Part shown: one piece after another, positions 3,871 to 63,012 of the stretch
How the letters are laid out: each line of letters starts with the position of its first letter
How positions within the stretch are numbered: position 1 is the first letter of the stretch
Source: Haliotis cracherodii
Lineage: Eukaryota
Direction: 5' to 3'
DNA length: 64,000 nucleotides
Assembly (NCBI RefSeq): GCF_022045235.1
Contig: NW_027266266.1
Coordinates: 4,953,848-5,017,847, forward strand
The notes under the pieces: generated by a model
Seen by the model: only the letters and a program-made list of their open reading frames with translations
Told to the model about the DNA's origin: nothing
The model's database searches: none
Program-made: the position numbers and the translations under genes

Positions 3871-3904
3871 GAACATTGTCAATTTCAACCGATTCATGTA
3901 ATAG

Positions 3905-4012
3905 GTAGCCTGACCACCCGATGACCTTATAGTCGCCTTTTCCGACAAGCATCGTTGCCTTTTACGGCCAGCATCGGTTTGCTGAAGACCTATTCTACCC
4001 CGGATCTTCACT
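3905..4012 (-). mobile_element. SINE family A fragment (body end)
   Basis: matches the cctgaccacccgatc...ttgctgaagacctattctaccccggat part of family A copies. Confidence 0.6.
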
Positions 4013-21960: not shown

Positions 21961-22071
21961 TAACTATATAGGCACGTCGCTATATAAGTACGACCCCATT
22001 TCACCTCACTTCCACTTTATTTGATTTATTTTTAATACAATAACTTTTGAAAATATCGTTTTGTGAGTAGA

Positions 22072-27000: not shown

Positions 27001-27439
27001 CCGCCTTCTGGCGTAAGACTCTAGGCAATTTATTCAATCCAAAATTGAGAATTCACACATGTTATGCACGGCCAAGACCAAAATATACATTAAAATACAA
27101 CACAGGTGTGCATATACAATATTACGCACAGGGCCTGGCATGACCAGCCGATTGATAAGACCGGGCCCATCTTACCACCCGTCTGGGCGAAGTAAGGGTC
27201 GAAGTAGTGTGTTGGGCAAAGGAACACAGTTCCTAGAACCAGTGCCCTCAACTACCAGACTCCCGTCCTCCGCCGACACAGGGACGCAACCCACGGCAAA
27301 CGGGCTGCCCACTTTGGTCGCCTCTTACGACCAGCTATGGGGTGCTGTGGAAATATTCTACCCCGGTTCCACACGGGGGAAGAGCTATTAGCGCTACCCA
27401 GCACTCACCACGAGGAGGTTCCTCTTCACGAGTGCCGAC

Positions 27440-27985
27440 ACCACTGGGAACGAGGCACCAGTAGGTACTACACACCACTAGGGACGAGGCACCAGTAGGT
27501 ACTACACACCACTAGGGACGAGACACGAGTAAGTACTAGACACCACTAGGGACGAGGCACCAGTAGGTACTAGACACCACTAGGGACGAGGCACCAGTAG
27601 GTACTACACACCACTAGGGACGAGACACCAGTAGGTACTAGACACCACTAGGGACGAGGCACCAGTAGGTACTAGACACCACTAGGGACGAGGCACCAGT
27701 AGGTACTACACACCACTAGGGACGAGGCACCAGTAGGTACTAGACACCACTAGGAACGAGGCACCAGTAGGTACTAGACACCACTAGGGACGAGGCACCA
27801 GTAGATACTAGACACCACTAGGGACGAGGCACCAGTAGGTACTAGACACCACTAGGGACGAGGCACCAGTAAGTACTAGGCACTACTAGGGGCGAGGCAC
27901 TAGTTGGTACTAGACACCACAAGGGACGAGGCATCAGTAGGTACTAGACACCACTAGGTACGAGACACCAGACGGTACTAAATTC
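27440..27985. repeat. tandem repeat, 34-bp unit x about 16 (ccactagggacgaggcaccagtaggtactagaca)
   Basis: direct read. Confidence 0.9.
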
Positions 27986-32460: not shown

Positions 32461-33454
32461 AGAACTATGTAGTTATCTAATGACTCGGCACAACCAAACA
32501 CATAACAACTGGAAGGAATGATGTAAACATGTTTACTTTTTGATATTACCAGTGTATGAAAATAGGGGAAAGTTGGAATATGAATACAAAATAACTAGGC
32601 TGTGACAAAAATATATGCATACATTGGAGACTGGTGACACTAAAACATCTTAACAATGTGACGTTAGAAGGTCAATAAATGATATAAATAATGATGACAA
32701 TAATGATGAACTTAGTCACAAAATTCTGCTACACATCAGAAGATGGCAGACACATCACCTCACACACCAATAAATAATAGTATACAACAGTATATCTAAC
32801 ACATACATACATAAACAGTCCCATCTCAGGGGGCAAGGAACATGCCAATTCCAATCCTGACTGGGCACTAAATCATGGAGCATTGTTATAAACATAACAA
32901 GCAAACAGTATATATCTATTATACATATACAAGTCTTTGATAGGCATTTGAGGTCCTTCCATGTGTCAGACATCCAGTTGTCAGACACTGGAATATTTTG
33001 TAACTGCCAAACACCCCTTTACTCATAATGGAATGACCCAGATCTCTTTGCAGTTTTAAATGGCTTGGCTGAACTGTAACTATATTTGGTTTTTGAGATA
33101 GTGCAATTCCTGGATGCAGCAGGTTACATTCCAACTCTGGCTTGAATGGCTGACAGTACACTGACATTGATGTGGAAGTAAATGTTACTATTTCATAATG
33201 ATTGATGGTCAGTATATATCATGTATATGTTATGTATTATAGTTCATGTATACAATGTAAACCTCCTTTAACTGAGCAATATATTCCAAAGTATAAAGTA
33301 ATAATATATCAAGAATAAGTACTGATTTGTATAAATTTGGTTTCTTTTGTACCAGTTGTCAGACAGTTGTTGACGACAGGACTAGTCTATTTGGATTTAA
33401 GGGAATATATCACACACCTCATGTGCCCTCAACTATACAAGTTGTTTTAAGTTG

Positions 33455-34055
33455 TCTGACTAATGGGGTGTCTGACAAATGGGGTGTCTGACAAGTGGGG
33501 AGTCTGACAAATGAGGTGTCTGACAAATGGGGTGTCTGACAAATGAGGTGTGTGACAAATGAGGTGTCTGACAAATGAGGTGTCTGACAAATGGGGTGTC
33601 TGACAAATGGGGTGTCTGACAAATGGGTAGTCTGACAAATGAGGTGTGTGACAAATGGGGTGTCTGACAAATGAGGTGTCTGACAAATGGGGTGTCTGAA
33701 AAATGGGGTGTCTGACAAATGGGTAGTCTGACAAATGAGGTGTGTGACAAATGAGGTGTCTGACAAATGGGGTGTCTGACAATTGGGGTGTCTGACAAAT
33801 GAGGTGTCTGACAAATGGGGTGTCTGACAAATGAGGTGTCTGACAAATGGGGTGTCTGACAAATTGGTAGTCTGACAAATGAGGTGTCTGACAAATGAGG
33901 TGTCTGACAAATGGGGTGTCTGACAAATGAGGTGTCTGACAAATGGGGTGTCTGACAATTGGGGTGTCTGACAAATGGGGTGTCTGACAAATGGGGTGTC
34001 TGACAAATGAGGTGTCTGACAAATGGGGTGTCTGACAATTGGGGTGTCTGACAAA
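33455..34055. repeat. tandem repeat, 20-bp unit x about 30 (gtgtctgacaaatgRggt)
   Basis: direct read. Confidence 0.9.
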
Positions 34056-35002
34056 TGGAAGTGAACAGGCATATATATTAACATGATTAACATTATTAAC
34101 TCAATACAATTACTCAGTATTCACCTGAAGGAGTTCTGAAGTAGCTCTAAAACATTGCTACAAACAATAATAAAGTCATTATCCATAACAGTGTCATATG
34201 ATCCTGTACATACACAGCTGACAACTCTCATTAAGTACACTTTGCCCACATCCACACAACAGTATAGCTCCTTCATAAATCATAATTCAACTGAAGAACA
34301 AATCTGGAATAAAACAGTATTATTTAAACACATTCATGGGATTTTATCAAAAAGCAGTAAAACCTCTTCACAGCCATCAGCTACAAATATCATGGACGAA
34401 CAGTAACAAAACAAAGGAAGCATTGGATCCTGCTTCTGTTACAGACATTACTGAGACTTGGATGGTTGTTCAAACAGAATCAATAGCTATGTGGTTTAAT
34501 CCAATGCCTGCTTTTGTCACCACAGCCCTTCCTTTCCATGCACATCCCTGTTTCGATGGTTACCAGTGGATGGCTTGTCTACTTATAACTATTGTAAACT
34601 TAGAGACATGAAAGTCTTAATAAGGGAGCACCAATTTGATTTAGGGGGTGGGTCTGAGAACAATCTCTTTTTATCCTGCCTGTGACAAACTATTTATTTC
34701 CTAAGCACCATCAAACAATGCATTCATTTTCACTATTAACACAAAAAATGACGTTTGGATATTTTCCACAAAACAAGCTATTCATTTTTTTCACTAGTGC
34801 CAACAACCTTTTTATTTTGGGCATATTTATGGACTTTTCATTTTAAAAATCTTGCCACCCAACAACCCCCCGAAATAAAATGGATGCTCCCTAAACTAAA
34901 TCAGTTTTTGACTCTCTTTCATAAATATTTTTTTTTTTAAATCTAACAATAAACTTGATCTAAATTAGTAGCATGAGACTATTTTCAAGATGACTGAGCG
35001 AA

Positions 35003-35639: not shown

Positions 35640-35810
35640 CTAATGCAGCAAGTTAAGACCTTCATGGTGTTCCCCCGTGCAATGACAGGTGCACACTTAG
35701 CAAGTGAAGATGTTCATGGTGTTCCCCCATGCCATGAACGGTGCTCATACAGCAATGGTGCAATGAACAGTGCTCATGCAGCAAGTGAAGACGTTCTTGG
35801 TGCCCATGGG
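35640..35810. repeat. tandem repeat, about 48-bp unit x3.6; the KCTD-like CDS terminates inside the first unit
   Basis: direct read. Confidence 0.8.
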
Positions 35811-36514
35811 TAAAATATGATTTGCAACTTGTAGACAAATTTCTGACAGGTTTGTCCATAGTAATATTTACACTTCCGTTTACCCTCATGTGGCTTGACA
35901 TTGAATCCATCCTCCATGAGATCATTCTCCAGACATTTCATAAACACTTCTTCGTCAGCCTGTGTTTCCCATGGCCCAATACTAACATGAGCTGATTCCA
36001 CGATGCATCCGTGGAGGGGGTTAAAGTTCTGAACTTTCGCCTTGAACTCTGTTCTGAAAGCACATATCAACACTTCACCGATTCTGTTAACCGATGCATT
36101 AGCAACTGCTGCTTGGATGACGTCATGCTTGGCATCTTGGTACCCTGGAAACTGGGATCGATGGGATTTTTTTACGATAATAGAAGCAATTTCAGGTCGA
36201 AGCTGTAGCTTTTCGACCATGGAGTGTAGGCCATAGTACTCGGCATCTCTGTAGACAGCAGTGGATAAGTCTGACGGCGGAACTGTCCCATAGCGGAGGT
36301 ATTCCAGAATGTGGCCAAACACGGCACCGTTGGTGTCCAAGAAGTAGTGGCCATCCTTGTCTTGGTCAACCTTGTGACGGCCACTGAACATGGCCGCTAG
36401 CATGGAGTCCGAGTACTTCAAAAGCGTGGAGAGTCGTGTCTGGTACACCACCCCGCCAACATTCAGTGATATGATTGGTGGAAACTGCCCCAGTTTTACA
36501 ACATTGTCTCGTGG
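35774..36514 (-). CDS. BTB/POZ (T1-type) domain protein, TNFAIP1/KCTD10/KCTD13-like. Main coding exon (246 aa plus stop): PRDNVVKLGQFPPIISLNVGGVVYQTRLSTLLKYSDSMLAAMFSGRHKVDQDKDGHYFLDTNGAVFGHILEYLRYGTVPP...
   Basis: 741-nt open frame bounded upstream by the acceptor ttatttttcag|CCA (36515-36517); a BTB_2/K_tetra signature (LNVGG..Y.T...TL....DSML.AMFSGR...D..G..F.D..G..F..IL.YLR) is aligned from memory to KCTD10/KCTD13/TNFAIP1. Confidence 0.8.
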   Translation of the reverse strand, partial: PRDNVVKLGQFPPIISLNVGGVVYQTRLSTLLKYSDSMLAAMFSGRHKVDQDKDGHYFLDTNGAVFGHILEYLRYGTVPPSDLSTAVYRDAEYYGLHSMVEKLQLRPEIASIIVKKSHRSQFPGYQDAKHDVIQAAVANASVNRIGEVLICAFRTEFKAKVQNFNPLHGCIVESAHVSIGPWETQADEEVFMKCLENDLMEDGFNVKPHEGKRKCKYYYGQTCQKFVYKLQIIFYPWAPRTSSLAA

Positions 36515-38845: not shown

Positions 38846-41800
38846 GTTCAGTGGAATTGCAGAGGTCTTCGAACCAATTTTAACGAGTTACAACTTTTAA
38901 TACAAGAGTTTACGCCATCAGAAATCTGTCTTCAAGAGACGTATCTCTAACAGACCGAAACCTTTTTGCGTCGGTACAGTTCTTATCATTCATTTTCTCG
39001 GCCAGGTGTTAAATCTACTGGATGATCCACTGTTTTGGTGAAGCAGGACGTGATCCACAGCCCTGTTTCACTTCAAACTCATCTTCAAGCTGTTGCAGTG
39101 CGACTAACTTTACACATAACCTTTACACTGAGTTCTCTGTATAGTTTCTCCCTCCTCTGTGCTTCAGAGATCGGATCTTCAAGCCTTATATGATCAGTTC
39201 CCTAAGCCCTGCATGATCATGGGTGACTTTAACGGATATAACCCATTATGGGGAAGTGTTAAAGTTAATGTTAAGGGGGAAGTACTTGAAGATCTTATTC
39301 CGATAACAATTTATGCATTTTCAATGATGGGTCTGTCACATCTGTCACTAACAGATTCAAATCTATTAAACAAATTTACTTGGTCGGTCCACGATGACTT
39401 GTGTGGATGCGACCATTTTCCTACAATATTAACAGCAAATGATCCATCTGGTGGAATTACTTTAGGATTAACACCTGATATGTTCAGGACTGTTACCGAC
39501 CCTTTTCAATCGTTTTCGGATAAGCTGAATGAAATTGCTCATATAACCATTCCTAAGTCCTCTGCAAATCCACACATTTGAAAACCATGGTTTAATAAAG
39601 AGTGCAAACAGAATAGTAAGTGCAGGAAAAAAGCGTAGAAATATTTCCGCAAATATCGAACTGTACACAATTTAAATCATGTTAAAAACACAAATGTCAT
39701 GGCAAGCCGTACATTCAAACAGAATAAGCGTAAGTCCTTGAGGAATTTTGTCACTAAAATTAATTCTCGCACACCAATATCCAAGGTGTGGAACACGATT
39801 GCAAAATTAAAGGCAAAGTATCAAAATCGAGCGTCCACCATCTCAAGGAAGGTGACCATTCTGTTAACAGATAAATTGGATATTGCTAATAAATTGGGCG
39901 AAACGCTGGCCAAACACTCTTCATCATCGAACTATGATGCTAAGTTTCAAAAATATCAGAAACAACAGGAAAAGAAGAGGTTTGGTTTTATTTCGGTAAA
40001 TGGAGAAGATTACAATGAGGTATTTTCGCTCCACCAGCTAAATACTGCCCAAGGTCAAGCGCACGATACTGCAGCGAGAGTGGATAATATTCACTATCAG
40101 CCTGAAGCATTTGCCTGATTCATGTTTAGAGACACGTCTTGATATATTTGATCGGATCACGACGTCAGGAGATTTTCCTCCATCGTGGCGTAATGCAATA
40201 GTTTTTTCCCATACCTAAACCTGGTAGGGACCATACTTTTGCATCTAATTATAGACCAATATCACCAACCAGCTGTGTGTGCAAAACCAAGGGAACGAAT
40301 AGTAAATAATCGGCTGGTGTGGTACTTGGAAACCAACAATATCTTAGCTAACATTCAGTGTGGTTTCCGTCAAATAGAAGTACCATTAACCATCTGGTAC
40401 GTTCAGAATCGTTTGTCAAAAATGCCGTTGTAAATAATCAGCATGCATTATCAATCTTTTTTTTATTTAGTAAAAAGCGTATGATACCACATGGAAGCAT
40501 GGTATTTTAAAAGATCTACATGATTTGGGATTAAGAGCTTGTCCGCCTCAATATATATCCCTTTCTTTAACAGACCGACATTTTCATGTTCGTGTGGGTT
40601 CCACCCTGTGTGACCATTATAATCAGGATCAGGGTGTCCCACCAGGCTGTATTTTGTCGGTGACTCTGTTTAGCATAAAGATTGATAGTCTGTCAAAGGT
40701 TTTAAATGATTCAATTGATGGTTCCCTTTTTGTGGACGATGTTAATATTCCATGTCGTGGCAAAAATATGCATACCATCGAGAGACAGTTGCAGCTGTGT
40801 CTCAATAAAATCCCAAAATGGTGTCTTGAAAATGGTTTTAATTTTTCAAAAGCTAAGACCAATTGTAGTCATTTGTGTAGGAAATACAAGCACCACAAGG
40901 ATCCAGAAGTATTTTTACATGGCACTCCTATCAAGGCTGTAGAAGAGTCCAAGTTCCTGGGTCTCATTTTCGATCATCATTTGACTCTTGAGCCACATAT
41001 TAATTATCTCAAAACTAAATGCCTGAAGGCTCGAGATTTGTTGAAAGTTGTTGCTGATACAAAGTGGGGAGGTGATCAGACAAGCCTCCTCCACTTGTAT
41101 AGGTCTCTGATCCGCTCTAAATTAGATTATGGCTCCATCGTTTATGGTGGAGCCTGTAAGAGCAATTTACACAAATTAGATTCAAGTCACCACCAGGGCC
41201 TAAGATTATGTCTTGGCGCATTTCGAACATCTCCCGTGGATAGCCAATACGTAATGTAGAAGCTGATGAACCATCTTTGAATCAACGGCGCTTTGAATCA
41301 AATTATCGCTTCAATACATTACAAAATTACATTCTAACCCATTAAACCCTGCTTACAAATGTGTTTTTGAACCCCTTTACGACGAACTTTTTCACAGTAA
41401 GTCTAAGCTCCACTAGGAATACGAATTAAACCCCACAGTACAGCTGCCAATATTGATTTAGATAATATTTCTCCTGTCAGTCTTTAATCTTCAACTTCTT
41501 GGCAACTTATCAGACCGGGAGTAGTCTTTACTTACACATTTTTAAAAATCAGACACAAATAATATATCAACAAGAATATATACAAGTTAGAACTAAATAT
41601 GAATCCCACCATTCTATTTTTAAAGATGGATCCAAGGATGGTGGCAGTCTCCAGTGCTGCTGTTATTATGCCGCATCATCCCGATTACCAGACCATAGCT
41701 CAATTTTTACTGCTGAAGCCAAGGCCATTTCAAAGGCTTTAGAATATATTCAAAAACAATCTAGCTGCAAAGGGTTTATCATCTTGTCAGATTCACTAGA

Positions 41801-42964: not shown

Positions 42965-44166
42965 ACTATCTAGTCGTCACTTTCGTTGGGATTTACTATC
43001 TAGTCGTCACTATCGTTGGGATTTACTATCTAGTCGTCACTTTCGTTGGGATTTTCTATCTAGTCGTCACTATCGTTGGGATTTACTATCTAGTTGTCAC
43101 TATCGTTCGGATTTACGATCTAGTCGTCACTATCGTTGGGAATTACGATCTAGTCGTCACTATCGTTGGGATTTACTATCTAGTCGTCCCTTTCGTTGGG
43201 ATTTACTATTTAGTCGTCACTATCGTTGGGATTTACCATCTGGTCGTTACTATCGTTGGGATTTACTATCTGGTCGTCACTATCGTTGGGATTTACTATT
43301 TAGTCGTCACTATCGTTGGGATTTACTATTTAGTCGTCACTATCGTTGGGATTTTCTTTTTAGTCGTCACTATCGTTGAGATATACTATTAGGTCGTCAC
43401 TATTGTTGGGATTTACTATTTAGTCATCACTATCGTTGGGATTTACTATTTAGTCGTCACTATCGTTGGGATTTACTATTTAGTCGTCACTATCGTTGGG
43501 ATTTACTATTTAGTCATCACTATCGTTGGGATTTACTATTTAGTCGTCACTATCGTTGGGATTTACTATTTATTCATCACTATCGTTGGGATTTTACTAT
43601 CTAGTCGTCACTATCGTTGGGATTAACTTTTGAGTCAGCACTATCTTTGGATTTACTTTTTAGTCCTCATTATCATTAGGATTTACTATTTAGTCATCAC
43701 TATCGTTGGGATTTACTATTTAGTCGTCACTATCGTTGAGATTTACTATTTAGTCGTCACTATCGTTGGGATTCACTATTTAGTCATCACTATCGTTGGG
43801 ATTTACTATTTAGTCGTCACTATCGTTGGGATTTACTATTTAGTCATCACTATCGTTGGGATTTTACTATCTAGTCGTCACTATCGTTGGGATTAACTTT
43901 TGAGTCAGCACTATCTTTGGATTTACTTTTTAGTCCTCATTATCATTAGGATTTACTATTTAGTCGTCACTATCGCTGGGATTTACTATTTAGTCGTCGC
44001 TATCCTTGGGATTTACTATTTAGTCGTCACTATCGTTGAGATTTACTATTTAGTCGTCGCTATCCTTGGGATTTACTATTTAGTAGTCGCTATCCTTTGG
44101 ATTTACTATTTAGTCGTCACTATCGTTGGGATTTACTATTTAGTCATGACTATCACTGGGATTTAG
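42965..44166. repeat. satellite, 30-bp unit x about 40 (ctagtcgtcactatcgttgggatttactat), with a roughly 270-bp higher-order repeat (43600-43870 matches 43870-44140)
   Basis: direct read; variant units gattaacttttgagtcagcactatctttgg recur 270 bp apart. Confidence 0.9.
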
Positions 44167-50096: not shown

Positions 50097-51506
50097 CTAA
50101 GTAAAGCAATAGGGCAACTGGTCAGTCAGTGATCTCATCACCAGGGTGGGGTCAACCACGCCTCAACAATCACGAGAATTACTCATCCTCATGTACTGTA
50201 CATTGATGATATTATATTTGTGTTCATGTCATACTATGTTCACGACATCAGTGTCTAAATCCCGTTATTTCCTGAGTGGGAGCTTAAACATAGTATGACA
50301 TGAACACAAATATAATGTTCTATTTATTAACGAAGAAGATGTCTACATACAAAGACAAATTTTAGTGTTTACTTAAAAGGACAGCAAGTCGCAACAGTAG
50401 CAGAATCACAATTTATCGACGTCTTCAGCTATGATGTCGTGTCTCGTGTTACGTCATTCCAACCTCACTTCACAATAAGATTTGAATGACGTCAACAATG
50501 CCATCCGTATGACGGAGAAATACACTGTTGTCTCGTGACATGATCACACACTACGAGCACATATGATTTTATGAACTCTTATATGTTTGCCCTCTTAGGT
50601 AATTAAAATAATTACCCTTGACGAAGTCAAAATGAGAAAACAATGACCCGAGCCATGAGGAGGTCAGACCAGACCGAGGCTGAGGTCCGGTAAAACCGCT
50701 GAAGGGGTTGGGTCCGAGGGTCCTTGTTTTCGCATATTGACCTTGTCATTTTAATCAATCGTTATGTTGTACTGAAATTCACTTGAAAGTTTATGAAGTC
50801 TTTCAACCCTTCTCTGTTTCATTACAGTAACATAGCTGCGAACCGTAAAATGTTAATATGCTAGATGCCATCTTGTTTTCTAGCAGATGAGTCAGTATTC
50901 ATCACATGACAGGTCAATACTGATCATGTGACAGGTCATTCTTCGAGGTCAGTGTCAGTCACATGATTTGGGGGTCTACATTGAAATGTATTGTTTCGTT
51001 ACGTGGTACAGATTAATGAATGGAATTGCAAGATTCTTAATAGAGGTATAACAAGAATCATTGTCTGTAAACATTTAAATTTCTGAGAAGAGTGACTTTT
51101 CTCTAACATTGTTATTTTCCCAGTATCCATGACTACATAATGGCGGCTACTGATCTTGCGGACTTTCACATCGTAATATTTACTTTAATATGTAGAAAAT
51201 ACCAGCGATTTGTGTCAAACACTTCAGCTCCAGATATATCGCAATACATCGCAATACAGAAACTATCACAATATATTTCAAACACTTAATTATAAGTCAT
51301 ACTTCCAAATTTCATGTTTTCTAATTGCTTAAAATTTATATATATGATGAGTAGTTGTGCTGTACACAATTTATTTTCCAAAAACAGTAGTGTCATGAAA
51401 TAATATCAATCACTTTGAAAAAAGTTTGCCAGGCTTGAAGTTGTCAGACAAAATGGCATGTATTGTACCACTTAGGATTTTACTACTAGTCTCTCAATAG
51501 AAAATG

Positions 51507-51762
51507 TCAGTAAATGACCTGTAAATGACCTGTATATGTCCTGTAAATGTCCTGTAAATGTCCTGTAAATGTCCTGAATATGTCCTGTAGATCTTAATGT
51601 CTTGTAGAGGTCGCCTAAATGACCTGTAAATGACCTGTAAATGTCCTGTAAATGTCCTGTACATGTCCTGAATATGTCCTGTAGATCTTATTGTCTTGTA
51701 GAGGTCGCCTAAATGACCAGTAAATGTCCTGTAAATGTCCTGTAAATGTAGATGTAAATTAC
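51507..51762. repeat. tandem repeat, 11-bp unit (cctgtaaatgt) within a roughly 120-bp higher-order unit, starting at position +6 of the ASL intron
   Basis: direct read; the intron begins gtaatttacatctacatttacaggacatttacagg... Confidence 0.85.
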
Positions 51763-51822
51763 CTGGAGGTCCTTGTTATAGGTGCTGGGAATCCCCTTCA
51801 GGGACATCATGAACCCCGAACA
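51763..51822 (-). CDS. ASL: ASL exon: [20 protein letters not shown]
   Basis: matches human [20 protein letters not shown]; acceptor gttgcag|, donor |gtaatt. Confidence 0.9.
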
Positions 51823-52056
51823 CTGCAACATCACGGACAATACATCTGTCATGGGACTCATCACACAAGCAAGGGAGTAAACTCATGCTGCTTTCTAATT
51901 ACTCTTTATTGATTCTATTAGGACTCGTTGTTCAAGTGCTACACTGTGATCTCAGGCAGAACAGGGGAGTAATACAATCATCCCTATTTATCACAGTTTA
52001 ATTTGACTCATTTAAAAAACCAATCACTACAAAAACGACTTTTCCTAAAGTAACGT

Positions 52057-52216
52057 GTAGCGGCCATAAAATTTTCGAGTCCCGTGATGGGATTCGAACC
52101 ACGGACCTTCTGATCCGAGGTCGGACGCCTTGTCCACATGACCAAAGAGGTTAACCCCGTCAGCAAGCTGACAAGGTAAGGATGTCATCTGTGGGATGAC
52201 TCCACGCCCTGCTACA
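52057..52216 (-). mobile_element. SINE family D; the reverse complement has a tRNA-like head (..GGTTAACCTCTTTGGTCATGTGGACAAGGCGTCCGACCTCGGATCAGAAGGTCCGTGGTTCGAATCCCATCACGGGACTC)
   Basis: four copies, all in ASL introns in the same orientation as the gene. Confidence 0.7.
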
Positions 52217-52320
52217 TACTCCCCCGTCAACAGAAGGCACGTCCCGGGCCGCATAGTAGGGTACTGAGGCTTATTTTGCTCAAATTTGATATGAACGTGC
52301 TCAGCCCCACGTTGGGCGCC

Positions 52321-52483
52321 AATGTAGCGGCCATAAAATTTCCGAGTCCCGTGATGGGATTCGAACCACGGACCTTCTGATCCGAGGTCGGACGCCTTGT
52401 CCACATGACCAAAGAGGTTAACCCCGTCAGCAAGCTGACAAGGTAAGGATGTCATCTGTGGGATGACTCCACGCCCTGCTACA
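52321..52483 (-). mobile_element. SINE family D, second adjacent copy (a tandem pair about 275 bp apart)
   Basis: about 99% identical to 52057-52216. Confidence 0.75.
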
Positions 52484-52521
52484 AACGCATTAATTGAAGT
52501 AGTCATGAGAGTGATGATTGC

Positions 52522-52612
52522 ATGTTGTTTTATGCTTCAGTCAGCAATATTCCAGCTATATCATGGTAGCCTGTAATAGTTGCGTTGAGGCCAGGCAGAC
52601 CAGTGACTGCAA
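52522..52612 (-). mobile_element. SINE family A fragment
   Basis: ttgttttatgcttcagtcagcaatattccagctatatcatggtagcctgtaat. Confidence 0.55.
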
Positions 52613-52661
52613 GCAGACTTCTAGGGACTTATAGAACTCCTGAATCACTGCAGGCACAATG

Positions 52662-53760
<1,099 letters not shown>

Positions 53761-53874
53761 TCATTAACTCAGTCACATCATCATCATCATCATACTGACA
53801 GACTGATTGTGGCCCACAAGGCCTTACTGACATTTAATGTACATCCATGAGTGAGTGAGTATGGTTTTACGCAT

Positions 53875-54115
53875 CTTCTTGAGGCAAGAGAGTTAACTGA
53901 CTATGAAAGTCCAATTTCCACCCTTGCCGAACTAGGCTGGAATTCCTGGGCTCAATCGTAGCGCCACCATTGGCTATTATGAGTTATGTCCCTTCTAAGC
54001 CTCTCCTATGGACCAATCAGAGTCCACCTCTCGTATGACTTGTATTTGCTTCAAACATAATGGCGGCACCCAGTCAAGACGATCTGATCGATTGGGAAGA
54101 TTTGGAAAATTACTG
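53875..54115. mobile_element. MITE family 2 fragment (TIR plus internal)
   Basis: gaggcaagagagttaactgactatgaaagtccaatttccacccttgccgaactaggctgg.. similar to 15640-15900. Confidence 0.6.
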
Positions 54116-54223
54116 TTGATAAACACACTTTTTGCTTATTACTATGCATCAGTGAATCTGACAAAACTACTGATGAATCATTCCATTCCGACAAAACTAC
54201 TGACTGAATCATAATTTTGAAAC

Positions 54224-55603
54224 AAAGCTCCACTATTGCTACAACACTGATCCATACTGACCTGTATGCGTCCGAGAGCGTGACAAAGCTCCACTACTGC
54301 TACAACACTGATCCATACTGACCTGTATGCGTCCGAGAGCGTGACAAAGCTCCACTACTGCTACAACACTGATCCATACTGACCTGTATGCGTTCGAGAG
54401 CGTGACAAAGCTCCACTATTGCTACAACACTGATCCATTCTGACCTGTATGCGTCCGAGAGTGTGACAAAGCTCCACTATTGCTACAACACTGATCTATT
54501 CTGACCTGTATGCGTCCGAGAGTGTGACAAAGCTCCACTATTGCTACAACACTGATCCATACTGACCTGTATGCGTCCGAGGGTGTGACAAAGCTCCACT
54601 ATTGCTACAACACTGATCCATACTGACCTGTATGCGTCTGAGAGTGTGACAAAGCTCCGGTATTGCTACAACACTGATCCATACTGACCTGTATGCGTCC
54701 GAGAGTGTGACAAAGCTCCACTATTGCTACAACACTGATCCATACTGACCTGTATGCGTCCGAGAGTGTGACAAAGCTCCACTATTGCTACAGCACTGAT
54801 CCTTTCTGACCTGTATGCGTCCGAGAGCGTGACAAAGCTCCACTATTGCTACAACACTGATCCATACTGACCTGTATGCGTCCGAGAGTGTGACAAAGCT
54901 CCGCTATTGCTACAACACTGATCCATACTGACCTGTATGCGTCCGAGAGCGTGACAAAGCTCCACTACTGCTACAACACTGATCCATACTGACCTGTATG
55001 CGTCCGAGAGCGTGACAAAGCTCCACTACTGCTACAACACTGATCCATACTGACCTGTATGCGTTCGAGAGCGTGACAAAGCTCCACTATTGCTACAACA
55101 CTGATCCATTCTGACCTGTATGCGTCCGAGAGTGTGACAAAGCTCCGCTATTGCTACAACACTGATCCATTCTGACCTGTATGCGTCCGAGAGTGTGACA
55201 AAGCTCCACTATTGCTACAACACTGATCCATACTGACCTGTATGCATCCGAGGGTGTGACAAAGCTCCACTATTGCTACAACACTGATCCATACTGACCT
55301 GTATGCGTCCGAGAGTGTGACAAAGCTCCGCTATTGCTACAACACTGATCCATACTGACCTGTATGCGTCCGAGAGTGTGACAAAGCTCCACTATTGCTA
55401 CAACACTGATCCATACTGACCTGTATGCGTCCGAGAGTGTGACAAAGCTCCACTATTGCTACAATACTGATCCATTCTGACCTGTATGCGTCCGAGAGTG
55501 TGACAAAGCTCGACTATTGCTACAACACTGATCCATTCTGACCTGTATGCGTCCGAGAGCGTGACAAAGCTCCACTAATGCTACAACACTGATCCATACT
55601 GAC
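54224..55603. repeat. minisatellite, 60-bp unit x about 23; each unit is the last 29 nt of the ASL exon at 55604-55718 plus the first 31 nt of the intron
   Basis: unit ctgtatgcgtccgagagYgtgacaaagctccactaYtgctacaacactgatccatactgac versus the exon end ctgtatgcgtccgagagcgtgacaaagct|GAACTCC. Confidence 0.9.
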
Positions 55604-55718
55604 CTGTATGCGTCCGAGAGCGTGACAAAGCTGAACTCCTTGGTGGAGTAGAGGATGAGGTCCTCCGCCCAGCGGCTGAGGTGAGTGCTGAGCAGTGACG
55701 CCCAGAACAGAAACTCCA
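55604..55718 (-). CDS. ASL: ASL exon: (V)[37 protein letters not shown](S)
   Basis: matches human [39 protein letters not shown]; acceptor tgtttcag|, donor AG|gtcagt. Confidence 0.9.
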
Positions 55719-55868
55719 CTGAAACATGGCGGAACAGGACGCAAACTCAGCAACAGATACAGAGACGCCCCAGCTTAAGGCAATTAGGAATATCTGGGAT
55801 AATTGGCTTCTAAATTAGCAAAAGTTAATCAAATATTCATGATTGTTCGACTACTTAAAGCAATGAAC

Positions 55869-56095
55869 CCGTGAAGTTCCAGGGTAGAATAGGTCTTCAG
55901 CAACCCATGCTTGCCATAAAAGGCGACTAAGGTGATCGGGCAGTCAGGCTCGCTGACTTGGTTGATGCATGTCATGGATCCCAATTGCGTAGATCTATGC
56001 TCATGATATCAATCACTGTATTGTCTGGTCCAGACTTGATTATTTACAGACCACCGTCATATAGCTGGAATATTTCTGAGTGCAGCAAACCAACC
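55869..56095 (+). mobile_element. SINE family A copy
   Basis: family A similarity plus tail module. Confidence 0.7.
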
Positions 56096-56214
56096 TTTAA
56101 ATCATGAAATTAACGCATTACAAATTAAAGATGAGCAACAGCCCCTAGCCTAAAATGAGTCCCGAAATTATTGCGAGTAGCCCTATCTTTGAAATTTAAA
56201 AAACGACAACACTA

Positions 56215-56300
56215 TTTGTTGTTTGTTGTTTAATGCCGCCCTCAGCAATATTACAACTATATGACGACGGTCTGTAAATAATCCAGTCTGGACCAGACAA
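56215..56300 (-). mobile_element. SINE family A 3' fragment ending 6 bp from the ASL splice donor at 56306
   Basis: cgccctcagcaatattacaactatatgacgacggtctgtaaataatccagtctggaccagacaa. Confidence 0.65.
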
Positions 56301-56305
56301 CTCAC

Positions 56306-56368
56306 CGACAAAGTCTCGGTCACTGACTGCATCCAAACTGTTTCCTGTCACATCCCCAAGGCCAAGTT
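56306..56368 (-). CDS. ASL: ASL exon: (E)LGLGDVTGNSLDAVSDRDFV
   Basis: matches human [21 protein letters not shown]; acceptor ggtttcag|, donor |gtgagt. Confidence 0.85.
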
Positions 56369-56544
56369 CTGAAACCAAAGATCGATTCATTGACACCACA
56401 TTCTATATATTCATGCTGAGTGATATGTATTTAGTCTTTTTGTTTGTAACATGGCTAAACATTATTTTTTCACTTCTGCTTCCAGTCAACAAATAAAATG
56501 TGTAAAGAACTGACTTCAATACTTTTCGCTTTAAAGGAGCAACA

Positions 56545-56658
56545 TCACGATGGGGAACACCAGAAAGGGGCTTCACACATTGTACCCATGTCGGGAATCA
56601 AACCCGGGTCTTTGGTGTGACGAGCGAATGCTTTAACATCTAGGCTACCCCACCGCCA
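56545..56658 (-). mobile_element. SINE family B head, inverted
   Basis: reverse complement of GGCGGTGGGGTAGCCTAGATGTTAAAGCATTCGCTCGTCACACCAAAGACCCGGGTTTGATTCCCGACATGGGTAC. Confidence 0.7.
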
Positions 56659-56755
56659 ATCGCTTTAATGGATGCCACAAAGTTACTAGAAATTTAGACA
56701 TTCTTGTCTAAACACCTTTTGAAACATGACACAGAAATAAGAACACTCGTTTTAC

Positions 56756-56808
56756 CTTTAGCAAGGAAGTCTCTGTCAACATCGAACGGATTCCCAGCCA
56801 GTGCACCA
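56756..56808 (-). CDS. ASL: ASL exon: (S)GALAGNPFDVDRDFLAK
   Basis: matches human SGAIAGNPLGVDRELLRA; acceptor ttgtttag|, donor |gtaaaa. Confidence 0.85.
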
Positions 56809-56825
56809 CTAAACAAGAACAACAA

Positions 56826-57070
56826 GTGAGTGAGACTAGTTTAACACCGCTTTGAACCGCATTTCAGTTATATCACGGCATGACAAAACTGAAATAAGAT
56901 GTTTACCACCTTGTTGAAATGCAGCCACACAGGAATGGTGTTGACAATCTTAAAAATGCTATCAGTGTGAATCTGTAAATCAACCCCGCAATCACAGATT
57001 TCTCTCATACATAAGGGACACAACTCTGTACAGCAAGTTGTTGGGCCTTTGACAACTGGGCCACCTGTGA
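56826..57070 (-). mobile_element. SINE family C, diverged copy
   Basis: gagtgagac..ttaacaccgct...atcacggc..ccac..ggaatggtgttgacaa similar to 2136-2420. Confidence 0.6.
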
Positions 57071-57309
57071 CCTTGAAAAGATTGATGATCTCAATACCAG
57101 GTAATTATGTGTTAAGAACACACAAAAATTGAGTGAACAATTTCTAAACTACAAATACACATGTACATTTGTAAAGTGCTTATTTCCCACTGAAAATCAG
57201 CACCTGGACAATATTTTAATAGTATTAAAATTTAAATATTTTAATCAACTGTTTTTATGACATGATTTACTGCTTTTTCAAATGCAGACCATAGGCATGT
57301 GATAACATG

Positions 57310-57900
57310 AATTAGTATATAATAGGGGTGAAACGATACAGCAAGGTCATGATATGATACTTATCCCAATACATAGGTCACTATACGATATGTATCGCGG
57401 TACGCATATTTACGTCAATTCGCATGGAAACTTCTTGACCATAAATATTTCAGAGAAAGTTCCAAGGGAAAAGCAACATGTAGACACATGTTTGTAGCGG
57501 CTGTTGTGAATAGTGAACTTGAAAGGCTAATTACAACACATTTTGCAATATCTGACTGACAACACCACTGGGATTAAGGTGGGGGTGGGGCAGTGGATGG
57601 AGGTGGGTGTGTTGGGGTGTGGGTGGGGGTAAAGGTGTGGTTGTGGATAGGGAGGGGGTGAGGGTGTGGTTCGGGGTGGGGATAGAGGTGTGGTTGTGGA
57701 AAGGGGCGGGAGTGGGGGTGGATGGGGGTGGGGGTGGGGTTGGGGGTAAAGGTGTGGTTGTGGATGGGGGCGGGGGTGTGGGTCATTAAACAAGTAGTAA
57801 GTAACTTATTTTAGCAAGTGTATCAACTTGAATGAAAAATGAATTGTGTATTGCATAGTCACATGAAAACTCCCGATGCACCGATGTATCAGTTCACCCC
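57310..57900 (+). mobile_element. interspersed repeat R1, copy 2, with an internal G-rich minisatellite (57570-57790) expanded
   Basis: collinear similarity to 45370-45900. Confidence 0.6.
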
Positions 57901-57944
57901 TGGTATATAAAATCCCATGATGGTCATAAGAAGTGACAAACAGG

Positions 57945-58060
57945 ATCGGTGGTCAGTGTGTCCATCACTGGATTGTCTGGTCGTGACTCGATTATTTACA
58001 GACCAACATCATAAAGCCGGAATATTGTAGAGTGCAGCGTTAAACAACGAACGCACAAAT
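57945..58060 (+). mobile_element. SINE family A fragment
   Basis: ..cactggattgtctggtcgtgactcgattatttacagacc..gccggaatattgtagagtgcagcgttaaacaacgaacg. Confidence 0.6.
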
Positions 58061-58127
58061 GATACAAACATATCATCTATTTCAAACTGCATGCTCTCTT
58101 CAGAGGAGACAACTCTGTCAGTACTGA

Positions 58128-58205
58128 CCTGCCAAGGGGCAAAACTGCTGTTCTCTCCCTCAACTGGTCAAGTCTCTTCAGATCTCGCTGCAACATCCAC
58201 CCATA
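58128..58205 (-). CDS. ASL: ASL exon: (S)YGWMLQRDLKRLDQLRERTAVLPLG(S)
   Basis: matches human [27 protein letters not shown]; acceptor gtgttcag|, donor |gtcagt. Confidence 0.85.
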
Positions 58206-58254
58206 GCTGAACACAACAGGGACGAAGAAGTGGTCATACAAGTTTAGAGTTAAG

Positions 58255-58467
58255 AGAGTTGGATGAGATGACACTTTGAAGAATATTTCACATCATCACG
58301 GTATATCAGCTTCATGTGAAGGAAAGCCTGAAGTGACATAGGTCTTGGACGTTTATCACCTTGCAAAAACCACGAGAAAGGATATGGTGCTGACAAACCT
58401 TGAAACATAAGCAGAGAGAACCAATGACGATAATTTTCTGGCACCCTAAGGGATGCAACTCTGCCCT
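58255..58467 (-). mobile_element. SINE family C, diverged copy
   Basis: ..gaaggaaagcctgaagtgacataggtcttggacgtttatcacc...ggtgctgacaaacc..gaaacataa. Confidence 0.55.
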
Positions 58468-59256
58468 ATGAACTGGGGTGCTTCAGGTAACTGAGGGCCC
58501 TCTTGCCCTACCCTGATGCTAGAAATAAGGGCTGGGACGAGTCCACATTTACTACCCGGGTACCCACCCCGCTATTACCTGACCCTACCTGGTAACTGCT
58601 GCAGGCCTCAAGAGCTTGGAACATAATGTGTCATTGGGAATTGTCTTACATGAGCCCTGGCAAAAACTGAACTTGACTGAAGCTTTATCTTTATTCAAAA
58701 ACATAAAAGTCAGAAGGAATGTGTGCATAGTCAGAAAAAATGGGGACATCAGAGTTTTGTAGTGTAACCATGGAGTTACAGTGAGTTTTTGTCATTAAAC
58801 AATATATCATGTGACTAACATGGGTCCGGGTTGTACCGGAGTTACCTGTCCAGCACCTAGCTAAAACAGAACATAATCACAACAACTTCTACTCATAAAA
58901 TTCTATCAAATGAACGTCAGTTTGGAAGGGATTTGCCATCTCCATGACAACAATCATGTACCCATTGGGCATACCAGTACATAACCTAAATAACAAAGTA
59001 TCATTTGATACTTTGACCATGTTTATGTTAATCAAACTGCATAAAAAATATTCCAAAGGGCTTACATATCAGAAATAACATTTTTTCAATTTATACACCT
59101 TTATCACAAATTACTTAATTTTATAATAACTCTGATAAATGATCAATAAAACTGTTCTCTTTCCCACTGCTATACTCTAACTCAAGCTTATTCTATTAAT
59201 ATTATTTCTTTAGAAACTATTTTTGCAGCCACCGACTCAAACTCACAAAGACTCAC

Positions 59257-59334
59257 CTAAGCAACCAGTGGCTCCATCTGATTGGCTGTGCTCTCTGCAG
59301 GTGTGTGTAACCAGGTAGTAAAATGTCAATTTCT
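59257..59334 (-). CDS. ASL: ASL exon: (S)[25 protein letters not shown](S)
   Basis: matches human [26 protein letters not shown]; acceptor atatttttcag|, donor |gtgagt. Confidence 0.9.
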
Positions 59335-59473
59335 CTGAAAAATATTTCAAACAAATTATTGGCAAAGTTAAAAGAAAAAAACATTTGAAGAAAAAGGAAA
59401 GCTGGTATCATTTATTGTGATTGTGTCAATACAGAAAGCTATCACCACTAACTTCACAGTTGATTTGCAATCT

Positions 59474-60048
59474 CATTAAAATCAGATCTGAGTTCTCGCT
59501 GCTGCTAAACAAAGATCTGAGGACATCCCATTTACGGGTCACGTCAGACCGACCTTTCGCGAACTTTGACCGACTACTGAATTGACCTACAAGAAGTCGA
59601 CATCAGCCAGTTACAAAGCAGCTTTCTCGAGCATTACGGCAATCGTTTCAACCTGGTGGCTTCCATTTCAGATTACGCTTGAAAAATATGTTGACACAGT
59701 TCTCGATTAAAATTTTGAAAACTGAACAAACGAACATTCCGGAATGTCTAATATATGGTTGAGATTGTATAGCAATGCTTCCCACATACTGTGCAACGCC
59801 TCCTCCGTTCAAATGTTTATCCCACTGAAGCAAGAGATAGACGATAATTTTGACGAATCAGTCGTACGGGTCGTAACTGTCGTTCGGAATACTCCGTGTT
59901 GACGTTTTCAAGGTTGCATGATTAGAAAACACATTTCAACGGTCACTTTCATGATCCGGTCGGATGAAAGGTCGTTCTGACATGCCCCGTAATGGGATGT
60001 CCTCAGATCTTTGTTTAGCGATAGCGAGAACTAGGATCTGATTTTAAT
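59474..60048. mobile_element. MITE family 1, complete copy of about 575 bp with TIRs of about 75 bp (cattaaaatcagatctgagttctcgctgctgctaaacaaagatctgaggacatcccatttacgggtcacgtcagaccgacctttc)
   Basis: 59474-59550 is the reverse complement of 59975-60048; the internal region is about 90% identical to 3470-3870; no coding capacity. Confidence 0.8.
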
Positions 60049-60456
60049 TGGGATTGGGTTGATTTGCTGTGTAGTCAAATCAAGACGCAGCCTGATTCAA
60101 GCAAAAAGGAAGCCAGCGTATGCTCAGATTAAATCACAGGAACAACAATGTGTGTCAGTGAACATGTGCCATAGCTTTACAGTCTCATCTCCTTAATACA
60201 CTGTTTCTGTATCAGGCAATGGTAGGGTTCTCAAAAGATATGCCCAGAGCATGACTCATTTGATTTCTGTGATCATTTAGTGAACTAAAAATAAATACAC
60301 ATTAAGCGACATTATTGAAACCTGTAAACCCTCACTTTCTTGGTGTACTGGTATTGCTTGTTTGTTCTGGTTGCTGTTAAACACTTCACTCAATAAACAA
60401 TTGGCCAGTAAATAATCAAGTCTGGACCTGACAATTCAGTGAATCGATATTGTGAC

Positions 60457-60618
60457 TGTAGCGGTCAAAAGATTTCAGAGTCCCGTGATGGGATTCGAAC
60501 CACGGTCCTTCTGATCATAGGTCGGACGCCTTGTCCATGTGACCAAAGAGGTTAACCCTGTCAGCAAGCTGACAAGGTAAGGATGTCATCTGTGGGACAA
60601 CTCCACGCCCTGCTACAT
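60457..60618 (-). mobile_element. SINE family D copy
   Basis: similar to 52057-52216. Confidence 0.7.
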
Positions 60619-60792
60619 GAGCAACTATGTCATCGGGGTCTGAAGACACACAATCAACCATGTCAGCAAGCTTGACCACTCAATCCATGATCACCTCTTA
60701 CGACCAGCGTAGGTTGGTGGGGGCCAATACAACCTGGATTCCCCAATGGGCGACTCGCATTAAGCTGACATTCTCTTCATCAGTGTACTCAC

Positions 60793-60947
60793 GACTTGGC
60801 CCTGTTGAGGATGACGCTGATGAAGTCGGTGAGGTAAGTGCGGAGCTGCAGCTGGGCGTCTCTCATCCACAGCCTCATGTCGGTGGCCACCTGGTCATTG
60901 CGGCTCCGGCCCGTGTGCAGCTTGCCTCCTGCTGCACCGATCAACTC
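60793..60947 (-). CDS. ASL: ASL exon: [51 protein letters not shown](S)
   Basis: matches human [30 protein letters not shown]....LLWELIRTMVDRAEAE; acceptor tgtttcag|, donor TC|gtgagt. Confidence 0.9.
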
Positions 60948-62150
60948 CTGAAACATTCACACCATCGTCACCTGCACTGACGCTTCTCTTAATTTAGTCA
61001 TCCTGCTGCACCGATCAACTCCTGAAACATTCACACCATCGTCACCTGCACTGACGCTTCTCTTAATCTAGTCATCCTGCTGCACCGATCAACTCCTGAA
61101 ACATTCACACCATCGTCTCCTGCACTGACGCTTCTCTTAATTTAGTCATCCTGCTGCACCGATCAACTCCTGAAACATTCACACCATCGTCTCCTGCACT
61201 GACGCTTCTCTTAATTTAGTCATCCTGCTGCACCGATCAACTCCTGAAACATTCACACCATCGTCTCCTGCACTGACGCTTCTCTTAATTTAGTCATCCT
61301 ACTGCACCGATCAACTCCTGAAACATTCACACCATCGTCACCTGCACTGATGCTTCTCTTAATTTAGTCATCCTGCTGCACCGATCAACTCCTGAAACAT
61401 TCACACCATCGTCTCCTGCACTGACGCTTCTCTTAATTTAGTCATCCTACTGCACCGATCAACTCCTGAAACATTCACACCATCGTCTCCTGCACTGACG
61501 CTTCTCTTAATTTAGTCATCCTACTGCACCGATCAACTCCTGAAACATTCACACCATCGTCTCCTGCACTGAAGCTTCTCTCAATTTAGTCATCCTGCTG
61601 CACCAATCAACTCCTGAAACATTCACACCATCGTCACCTGCACTGACGCTTGCTTCTCTTAATTTAGTCATCCTGCTGCACCAATCAACTCCGGAAACAT
61701 TCACACCATCGTCACCTGCACTGACGCTTGCTTCTCTTAATTTAGTCATCCTGCTGCACCGATCAACTCCTGAAACATTCACACCATCGTCACCTGCACT
61801 GATGCAGCTCTTAATTTAGTCATCCTGCTGCACCAATCAACTCCTAAAACATTCACACAATCGTCACCTGCACTGACGCTTCTCTTAATTTAGTCATCCT
61901 GCTGCACCAATCAACTCCTGAAACATTCACACCATCGTCACCTGCACTGACGCTTCTCTTAATTTAGTCATCCTGCTGCATGATCAACTCCTGAAACATT
62001 CACACAAGCATGTCTATCGCCACCTGCACTGACGTGTTTCTTAAGTTAGTTATCTTGTTGCACCGATAAGCTCCTGAAGCATTGACAAAACAATGTCCAT
62101 CGTCTCCTGCACTGAAGTTTTTCTTAACTTAGACCTTATCCTAATCCTGA
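60948..62150. repeat. minisatellite, about 62-bp unit x about 17 (degenerating after 62000); each unit is the last 14 nt of the ASL intron (the acceptor) plus the first 20 nt of the exon at 60928-60947
   Basis: unit ctgaaacattcacaccatcgtcacctgcactgacgcttctcttaatttagtcatcctgctgcaccgatcaactc versus the junction ..cctgctgcaccgatcaactc|ctgaaacattcac. Confidence 0.9.
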
Positions 62151-62223
62151 TCAACATAGTAAAAAAACATGAACATGTTCTGTTCCAAAAATTTTTTGTC
62201 CCTGAATAACTCTGAATAACAAC

Positions 62224-62307
62224 CTTGAGCCTCCTCTCATTGGCAGTGTGGATGTCTTCGTCCCCTGGCTTCAGCTCAAACTCATCTTTCTGCCACTCCT
62301 CTTTAAC
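62224..62307 (-). CDS. ASL: ASL exon: [28 protein letters not shown]
   Basis: matches human [28 protein letters not shown]; acceptor tgtttgcag|, donor |gttgtt (weak consensus). Confidence 0.85.
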
Positions 62308-62729
62308 CTGCAAACACATCAAATTCCCGAGTCAGTGATTAACAATGGTCCAGCAACATCAGAGGGCCAAGACAAAAGTGAGTTATCCGCCCATGAGTGG
62401 AGGTCCTATTTCATTCCCCAAACTGGTAGTACATTCTTCACTGATACCTACCAAAGACCGTCTTTCTCGATGATTTGTCTGAATCTCCATAAATGCAGTT
62501 TACTGGCATTCAAAATGACACTTCCAGCCATATCTCGCTGTAAATTGTGAACCAGACCATACTTTCTAAAGACTTCTAAATTGCATCCTCAAATGTAAGA
62601 ACATATGAACTTTACAATCATTAGTAATTTTAAACTGTTTCCCAGTTTGCCTATCATGGGCGCTTAGCTTAAGATCCTAGATAAATCTCTGAGACACACA
62701 CCAGAGACCCTTCAGGTTGTAAACGTCAC

Positions 62730-62816
62730 CTTCTCCAAGCCACCAAGTATGGAGTCCCTCTCGGCCGCCGTCACAATGCCCACCTTCTCCAGGGCCTTCA
62801 CATACGCCTGACTTCC
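62730..62816 (-). CDS. ASL: ASL exon: GSQAYVKALEKVGIVTAAERDSILGGLEK
   Basis: matches human [29 protein letters not shown]; acceptor ttgtttcag|, donor |gtgacg; the exons for the first 50 or so residues were not found and are probably beyond 64000. Confidence 0.85.
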
Positions 62817-62847
62817 CTGAAACAATGTCAGCAGATGGAAAGACCCG

Positions 62848-62995
62848 AATCACAGTTTCCAGTCCCGTTATGGGATTCGAACCACCTTCTGATCCGAGGT
62901 TGGTCAACATGAACAAAGAAGTTAATCCTGTTAGCAAGCTGACATAGTAGAGATGTCATCTGTGGGACTTATTTTGCTCATTTAATATGGTCGTT
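62848..62995 (-). mobile_element. SINE family D, degenerate copy directly upstream (transcript sense) of the 62816 exon
   Basis: cagtcccgttatgggattcgaaccacc..ctgatccgaggt..gttaatcctgttagcaagctgaca. Confidence 0.55.
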
Positions 62996-63012
62996 CCCAT
63001 GCTAGACAACAT

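Follow-up and report, generated by a model that had tools for sequence, protein, structure and literature searches.

How does a spliceosome choose one 5′ splice site when nearly the same site is offered 23 times in succession? The question is raised by the ASL gene in a 64,000-nt stretch of the black abalone, Haliotis cracherodii (assembly GCF_022045235.1, contig NW_027266266.1, positions 4,953,848 to 5,017,847; hereafter the window, whose own numbering is used throughout). Intron 10 of this gene opens with a minisatellite whose 61-bp unit carries the end of exon 10 together with its splice donor. Overall, the array is probably a minisatellite of the "mirage" type that arose in place, with its first unit on the real exon-intron boundary and the donor repeated down the intron, of which the first donor would be used and the remaining copies would mostly be silent pseudo-sites. 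The structure and the evolutionary origin of the array are well supported; the use of the first donor, the silence of the pseudo-sites and the degradation of any leak are what we infer from precedent and from purifying selection on the gene.

Anatomy of the exon 10/intron 10 array

ASL lies on the minus strand, and its 14 exons in the window, with GT-AG borders, translate to residues 48-471 of H. cracherodii ASL with zero mismatches; the first coding exons are past the window end. The gene was first probed with a human ASL sequence (exons ~62819 to 46966, minus strand), which database proteins replaced for all conclusions. The joined exon translations, searched against a protein database, matched ASL-like proteins of H. 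cracherodii and H. rufescens at 99%, of H. rubra at 96% and of H. asinina at 95%. The features of the exon 10 region are as follows, the vertical bar in a motif marking the border between exon and intron.

55604 to 55718, minus strand: ASL exon 10, encoding (V), 37 residues and (S), an exact match to H. cracherodii ASL residues 247-284; bordered by tttcag| on the acceptor side and |gtcagt on the donor side
55598 to 55606, minus strand: authentic 5′ splice site CAG|GTCAGT, with 8 of 9 consensus positions; the sole donor joining SDAYS to exon 11 in frame
54222 to 55632, minus strand: 61-bp minisatellite of 23 full units and a terminal 8-nt partial (Tandem Repeats Finder, TRF)
54962 to 55632, minus strand: higher-order block A, units 0-10, 671 bp (unit-to-unit mismatch comparison)
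54291 to 54961, minus strand: higher-order block B, units 11-21, 671 bp, a duplicate of block A (unit-to-unit mismatch comparison)
54256 to 55545, minus strand: 22 reiterated pseudo-donors at exact 61-bp spacing, 15 with CAG|GTCAGT and 7 with CAG|GTCAGA (motif table)
54222 to 54229, minus strand: terminal partial unit AGCTTTGT following unit 22 (register table), with unique sequence after it
53741 to 54221, minus strand: unique remainder of intron 10 with a single acceptor ..ccatcgacag|, 88% identical to the H. rufescens intron in alignment and colinear with the outgroup introns
53656 to 53740, minus strand: ASL exon 11, encoding (S) and 28 residues

TRF called the array with a period of 61, 23.1 copies, 96% matches and a score of 2563, and on the minus strand CAGGTCAG was found at 23 sites with exact 61-bp spacing from 55606 to 54264. 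A first-pass annotation, made from the letters of the window, had recognised a tandem array of about 23 copies of an exon end and its 5′ splice site, which agrees with these counts; the 60-bp period that it gave does not. In register, the unit is AGCTTTGTCAC(G/A)CTCTCGGACGCATACAG|GTCAGTATGGATCAGTGTTGTAGCAATAGTGG and consists of the last 29 nt of exon 10, as the annotation had read it, and the first 32 nt of intron 10, not 31 (the intron string quoted in the annotation itself has 32 letters). Unit 0 is made of exon 10's own last 29 nt (55604-55632) and the start of intron 10 and thus spans the real boundary. The 32-nt intron part showed 23 matches in the window with at most 3 mismatches against 0 expected by chance, and at the same threshold no copy of it was found in the window outside the array, so that within these 64 kb nothing speaks for a dispersed or transposon-borne unit; the unit also includes ASL's own exon sequence. 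The TRF call, the spacing and the matches together indicate that the array is real and far beyond chance. It takes up 72% of intron 10 (55603-53741, 1863 nt).

The annotation had itself raised the concern that the shared 29 nt might not be exonic. This is contradicted by the exact protein match of exon 10 and by the intron position after SDAY-AG|, which is common to amphioxus, Pecten (scallop), Littorina (periwinkle) and all four abalones, so that the shared segment is truly exonic. The occurrence of unit subtypes in blocks, also reported there, was confirmed and is due to an 11-unit (671-bp) higher-order duplication: unit-to-unit mismatches were minimal at an offset of 11 units (1.25 versus ~2.85), and blocks A and B were 97.9% identical. 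Directly after the array, at 54161-54226, there is a 31-bp repeat of 2.2 copies (CAGTAGTTTTGTC.GAATGGAATGATTCAT) with only a loose likeness to the intron part of the unit.

Orthologous introns and the origin of the array

The comparison of the orthologous intron in related species that the annotation had proposed covered the loci of H. rufescens (L001, assembly GCA_023055435.1), H. rubra (L002) and H. asinina (L003). H. rufescens has a 61-bp array at the same junction with 20 full units and a 29-nt partial (20.5 copies), with variants of its own, including CAT|GT in 7 units, and with a higher-order periodicity of 2 units where H. cracherodii has 11. The +26G variant is common to both arrays and the remaining variants are species-specific, so the array predates the split of the two species and has been turned over since. 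In H. rufescens, two synonymous changes are private to the true exon copy; boundary units of amphioxus arrays are described as behaving in the same way. In H. rubra and H. asinina, whose introns measure 623 nt and 571 nt, respectively, CAG|GTTAGT is the only donor. The unit anatomy, the higher-order blocks and these short single-donor introns bear out the first-pass proposal of a tandem duplication across the exon-intron boundary followed by several rounds of amplification.

The same comparison settles whether the array could be an assembly artefact, in which collapsed or expanded reads put an exon fragment into the intron. Tandem arrays are indeed error-prone in assemblies, and the copy number given by the assembly may not be exact. 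However, the independent assembly of H. rufescens holds the array at the same junction with a different copy number and species-specific variants, the 61-bp spacing in the window is strict with the variants structured into higher-order blocks, and the flanks are colinear with the outgroup introns. With two independent assemblies that differ in array contents, we regard an artefact as ruled out for practical purposes.

When the array was collapsed to one unit, the black abalone intron aligned colinearly with the outgroup introns. H. rubra carries AGGTTGTTT (about intron position +33) where the H. cracherodii array ends in AGCTTTGT, as would be expected if the initial duplication involved two similar 8-nt motifs at a distance of 61 bp, the exonic AGCTTTGT and the intronic AG(G)TT(T)GT. 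This 8-nt microhomology probably seeded the first duplication, and the array would have grown from it by unequal exchange or replication slippage. The duplication took in the stretch between exon position -29 and intron position +32. On the shared junction and the colinear introns, the birth of the array is placed at this very site, in the ancestor that H. cracherodii and H. rufescens have in common; afterwards it grew and turned over separately in each species.

The array has four features of a mirage: at least three similar units head to tail, a terminal unit across the authentic exon-intron boundary, a splice signal repeated in the units and variation in copy number, the last of which was found between species only (23.1 versus 20.5 copies, with different higher-order structure). 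For a further trait of mirages, undisturbed splicing from the authentic site, the purifying selection, the RefSeq join and the read-through peptide search described below give indirect support. The class is already known and the abalone ASL array is a new member of it; no report of junction minisatellites in abalone or other molluscs was found in the literature searched.

The distal flank of the array was remodelled in H. rufescens by an insertion of ~440 nt (L001 ~21570-22010) that is absent from the H. cracherodii window. The head of the insertion gave a weak Rfam tRNA hit (17.5 bits, E = 0.65) and ARAGORN found no tRNA in it; the insertion might be a tRNA-derived short interspersed nuclear element. 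A similar sequence is also present in intron 12 of H. asinina.

Donor choice along the array

CAG|GTCAG was present in 23 of the 23 units. The first-pass claim that every unit carries an intact copy of the authentic donor holds to this extent; the exact authentic 9-mer CAG|GTCAGT, with a U1 duplex of approximately -9.9 kcal/mol, was found in only 16 units, and 7 units have GTCAGA. Variants within the 9-nt donor made up 7 of 37 in the window and 7 of 50 in H. rufescens, near the 9/61 expectation, and gave no hint that selection favours or disfavours intact donors in the units.

The annotation had gone further and taken the unit length to be a multiple of 3 with one frame open across several units, so that 23 competing donors would add 20 amino acids per retained unit and produce ASL length variants. 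The units do hold intact donors, and a human precedent for an in-frame donor minisatellite exists in IFI6, as cited in PMC1557585. The unit is 61 bp and not 60, however; with 61 = 3x20+1, the frame is shifted by every unit retained. Splicing from donor 1 or 2 to exon 11 gives a frameshift with a stop inside exon 11, and from donor 3 onward the third unit supplies an in-array TAG as codon 85 in the frame of exon 10. Thus 22 of 22 extra donors led to a frameshift or premature stop and were non-productive. The longest open frame across the array was 60 codons (~3 units) on the gene strand and 32 codons on the other strand. IFI6-type arrays have units that are a multiple of 3 and no in-frame stop, neither of which applies to the 61-bp array. 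Turri et al. are said to have described, in 1995, an IFI6 unit of 12 nt whose alternative donors add amino acids in frame. The period of 61 together with the stops after every alternative donor refutes the gain of 20 amino acids per unit; in-frame ASL isoforms from the array were rejected, and this reading keeps practically no credence.

The first donor differs from the others solely in its distance from the exon 10 acceptor and in the exon body upstream of position -29. The spliceosome would use this first, exon-proximal donor, either through exon definition or through the 5′-to-3′ order in which the sites appear, because it alone lies at the normal 115-nt distance from the acceptor and adjoins the exon body. 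If so, the 22 downstream copies would be mostly silent pseudo-sites. A leak through any of them would yield a premature-stop transcript that is expected to undergo nonsense-mediated decay, and the array would be a tolerated, roughly neutral by-product of minisatellite formation without protein isoforms. The gene itself is conserved: between H. cracherodii and H. rufescens the ASL codons showed 30 synonymous and 3 amino-acid-changing differences, and against H. rubra 100 and 14; strong purifying selection thus acts on ASL coding sequence in the two array-carrying species. That ASL is an essential urea-cycle gene in abalone, as the annotation called it, is an assumption.

Precedent for the first-donor reading comes from known junction minisatellites. 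In the human F7 intron 7 variable number tandem repeat (IVS7; 37-bp unit, 5-9 copies; Borensztajn et al. 2006, PMC1557585), the first monomer also lies on the exon-intron boundary, the authentic donor is followed by identical pseudo-donors and only the upstream-most of the identical donors is used; a 5′-to-3′ oriented scanning was proposed there as the rule for donor choice. The F7 unit includes 4 exonic nt, whereas the ASL array has 29 exonic nt and 23 copies and hence far more identical local context, and donor use in F7 rests on minigene and patient evidence where the ASL case is read from DNA sequence. According to PMC1557585, human IFI6 (6-16), CBS, LMNB2 and PDGF are likewise junction-spanning minisatellites with 10-26 reiterated donors, among which LMNB2 (100-bp unit) and PDGF intron 4 (81-bp unit) are near the ASL array in unit size and copy number and use the authentic donor only.

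In amphioxus, mirages are described at donor and acceptor boundaries of Adh3 (units of 10-72 bp), troponin C, the globins BflGb6 and BflGb9, and PGBD5, with unstable length and with splicing undisturbed by reverse transcription PCR (Canestro et al. 2002 in NAR, as cited in PMC3087553 and PMC3902484). The likeness to the abalone gene is close: the units cross exon-intron boundaries with the splice signal repeated in them, 5′ as well as 3′ boundaries are hit, and one gene may hold several arrays (11, 32, 61 and 74 bp in abalone ASL). In both, moreover, the arrays are unstable in length, the inner units evolve in concert and the boundary unit is spared homogenisation. The host is a cephalochordate in one case and a gastropod mollusc in the other, and the abalone array, unlike those of amphioxus, can be dated to one short branch, being present in H. 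cracherodii and H. rufescens and not in H. rubra or H. asinina. For amphioxus, reverse transcription PCR showed normal splicing, whereas the abalone gene is known here at the genomic level. The intron-gain model of Rogers 1989, a tandem duplication across AG|GT as outlined in PMC3087553, also copies splice signals inside a gene; in ASL no new intron or exon was formed and the duplicated exon pieces are inside an existing intron.

The non-productive outcome of every alternative donor also suits a reading of regulated unproductive splicing, in which pseudo-sites would be used in all four junction arrays of ASL (three more are described below), the premature-stop transcripts would be destroyed and array length would tune ASL output like an expression-modifying variable number tandem repeat. 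The pseudo-donors match the authentic donor in strength without structural masking, and the sister species differ strongly in copy number at all four arrays. According to PMC1557585, moreover, the authentic donor and the first two pseudo-sites are used both in human IFI6 (25 pseudo-sites) and in CBS intron 13 (15-20 repeats); IFI6 thus uses three donors, and the 61-bp unit of ASL cannot give in-frame products. Against regulation stand the mirages of F7, LMNB2, PDGF and amphioxus, which use the authentic site only, and the absence of any sign of selection on donor integrity within the units. NCBI lists one ASL product without isoform label in H. cracherodii and in H. rufescens, which is weak evidence in the same direction. 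We consider regulated unproductive splicing unlikely.

Several observations weigh against a silent role of the pseudo-donors, beginning with the use of pseudo-sites in IFI6 and CBS. The copies are as strong as the authentic donor, since 16 of the 23 sites share the same 9-mer, with the same 29 nt upstream and 32 nt downstream. No RNA structure that would mask them was found: exon 10 with 3.5 units folded no better than shuffled sequences (z = +1.27). When donors are duplicated in vitro, the intron-proximal, downstream site is reportedly often favoured if U1 occupies all of them (work attributed to Reed & Maniatis 1986 and Eperon et al. 1993). Equal strength, the absence of masking structure and this in vitro behaviour together make substantial use of pseudo-sites possible. 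The RefSeq ASL proteins of all four abalones have the SDAYS|TGSS join; RefSeq gene models are partly homology-driven, and they are therefore no proof of donor choice. A protein-database search with exons 8-10 and the read-through peptide returned distant ASL fragments only and no Haliotis fragment. As for the origin, the microhomology seed is read from a single short, diverged alignment. With these points counted, use of the first donor remains the probable reading for ASL.

Junction arrays elsewhere in ASL and in the window

The exon 10 array is not the only one at a splice junction of ASL. Three further arrays were identified:

52662 to 53656, minus strand: 32-bp unit, 31 copies, starting at the exon 11 donor AAT|GTATGT (TRF and motif counts)
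60927 to 62005, minus strand: 74-bp unit, 15 acceptor copies at the exon 5 acceptor, with more degenerate copies to ~62132 (TRF and motif counts)
51502 to 51749, minus strand: degenerate 11-bp array, unit CAGG(T/A)(A/C)ATTTA (CAGGACATTTA / CAGGTCATTTA), starting 14 nt after the exon 12 donor

In the 32-bp array the donor recurs every 32 bp, GTATGT opening 26 units and GTATTT 5; H. rufescens has 64 copies. The 74-bp unit consists of 53 nt of the end of intron 4, with tttcag|, and the first 21 nt of exon 5 (GAGTTGATCGGTGCAGCAGGA). Its authentic acceptor (exon start 60947) is the last of the 15 copies, and splicing to any earlier one would run at once into a stop, GGA TGA. Immediately before the acceptor, the intronic sequence has CAG|GTGACG in 7 of the 15 copies, including the authentic one, and CAG|GAGACG in 7 others; H. 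rufescens has 6.5 copies. The 11-bp array appears to derive from the donor of exon 12 (51763-51822), CAG|GTAATTTA. It holds 5 CAG|GT sites in the window and 53 in H. rufescens, where it extends over ~1.25 kb, and the outgroup abalones have only CAGgtaatgtaCAGG at this position. None of the 74-, 32- and 11-bp junction arrays was present in the ASL loci of H. rubra or H. asinina.

Overall, 4 of the 5 ASL arrays in the window are on or beside junctions. Under a generous null in which seed duplications were free to overlap exons, the probability of at least 3 of 5 arrays overlapping a junction was 0.012, and that of at least 4 of 5 overlapping or lying within 14 nt was 0.0016. Once it is allowed for that the gene was chosen by one such array, the probability rises to ~0.007-0.06 by rough estimate, and the clustering is suggestive, not conclusive. 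Among control ASL loci, arrays at junctions numbered 0 of 4 in H. rubra and 0 of 1 in H. asinina; no arrays were found in the ASL loci of Patella and Littorina, and Pecten has one, 26 nt from a donor and not donor-derived. In amphioxus ASL, which served as a positive control, true junction repeats account for 2 of 3 arrays, with a 24-bp donor-spanning array at ~3800-4004 of the Branchiostoma locus (L004; AAAG|GTCAGTTGG...) and a 31-bp acceptor-spanning array at ~7155-7476 (ggctttcag|TGCTCAGGTTTCATGATG...). Both are textbook mirages, at junctions other than the abalone ones.

Two explanations would give this cluster a cause. One is a selected function, in which many U1-binding or acceptor-like sites aid exon definition or guard a long intron from premature cleavage and polyadenylation. 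It would account for the placement of the arrays, and GT is kept by all pseudo-donors in both species. Yet the outgroup abalones, Littorina, Patella and Pecten do without such arrays, variation inside the donors is as frequent as elsewhere in the unit, and the 2- to 5-fold variation in copy number between the sister species is what neutral turnover predicts; such a function is very improbable. The other starts from the appearance of all four junction arrays on the short branch of H. cracherodii and H. rufescens and sees in it a lineage-specific mutational process with a preference for seeding minisatellites at splice junctions, in convergence with the amphioxus mirages. We put this forward as a tentative possibility.

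Minisatellites are abundant in the window as a whole (68 TRF rows), with arrays of 16-, 30-, 34- and 48/144-bp units reaching 0.5-1.9 kb, for example at 42965-44165, 33453-34058, 30524-32411, 27437-27980 and 11583-12469. A 30-bp array downstream of ASL has 40 copies in the window and 13 in H. rufescens. No known RNA family was detected at the Rfam gathering score within 51000-63000 of the window. Besides ASL, the window offered no second multi-exon gene for comparison; its other identifiable genes were:

35774 to 36451, minus strand: KCTD-family exon (BTB_2 and KCTD_C)
39159 to 41259, plus strand: fragment of a non-LTR (long terminal repeat) retrotransposon (endonuclease and RVT_1)
29454 to 29909, plus strand: DDE_3 transposase fragment

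The ASL locus is a natural test of how a spliceosome chooses one site among many identical ones. Since 61 nt of context are common to the 23 donors, long-range position is all that can distinguish them. In the 74-bp acceptor array, in turn, the spliceosome has to take the last copy of 15, an outcome that does not follow from a simple first-come-first-served rule. This gene adds a mollusc to amphioxus and the few human genes with mirage minisatellites, and the origin of such arrays is open to direct study here, since their birth is datable and the outgroups keep the pre-duplication sequence. H. cracherodii and H. rufescens are both of conservation concern, and in either species arrays of this kind can lead gene prediction, exon capture or PCR markers astray. 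Of greatest interest is the possibility that the four clustered arrays record a mutational process targeted at junctions in the lineage of these abalones. If they do, tandem-duplication mutagenesis would be tied mechanistically to splice-site sequence or to co-transcriptional splicing, in place of chance and tolerance.

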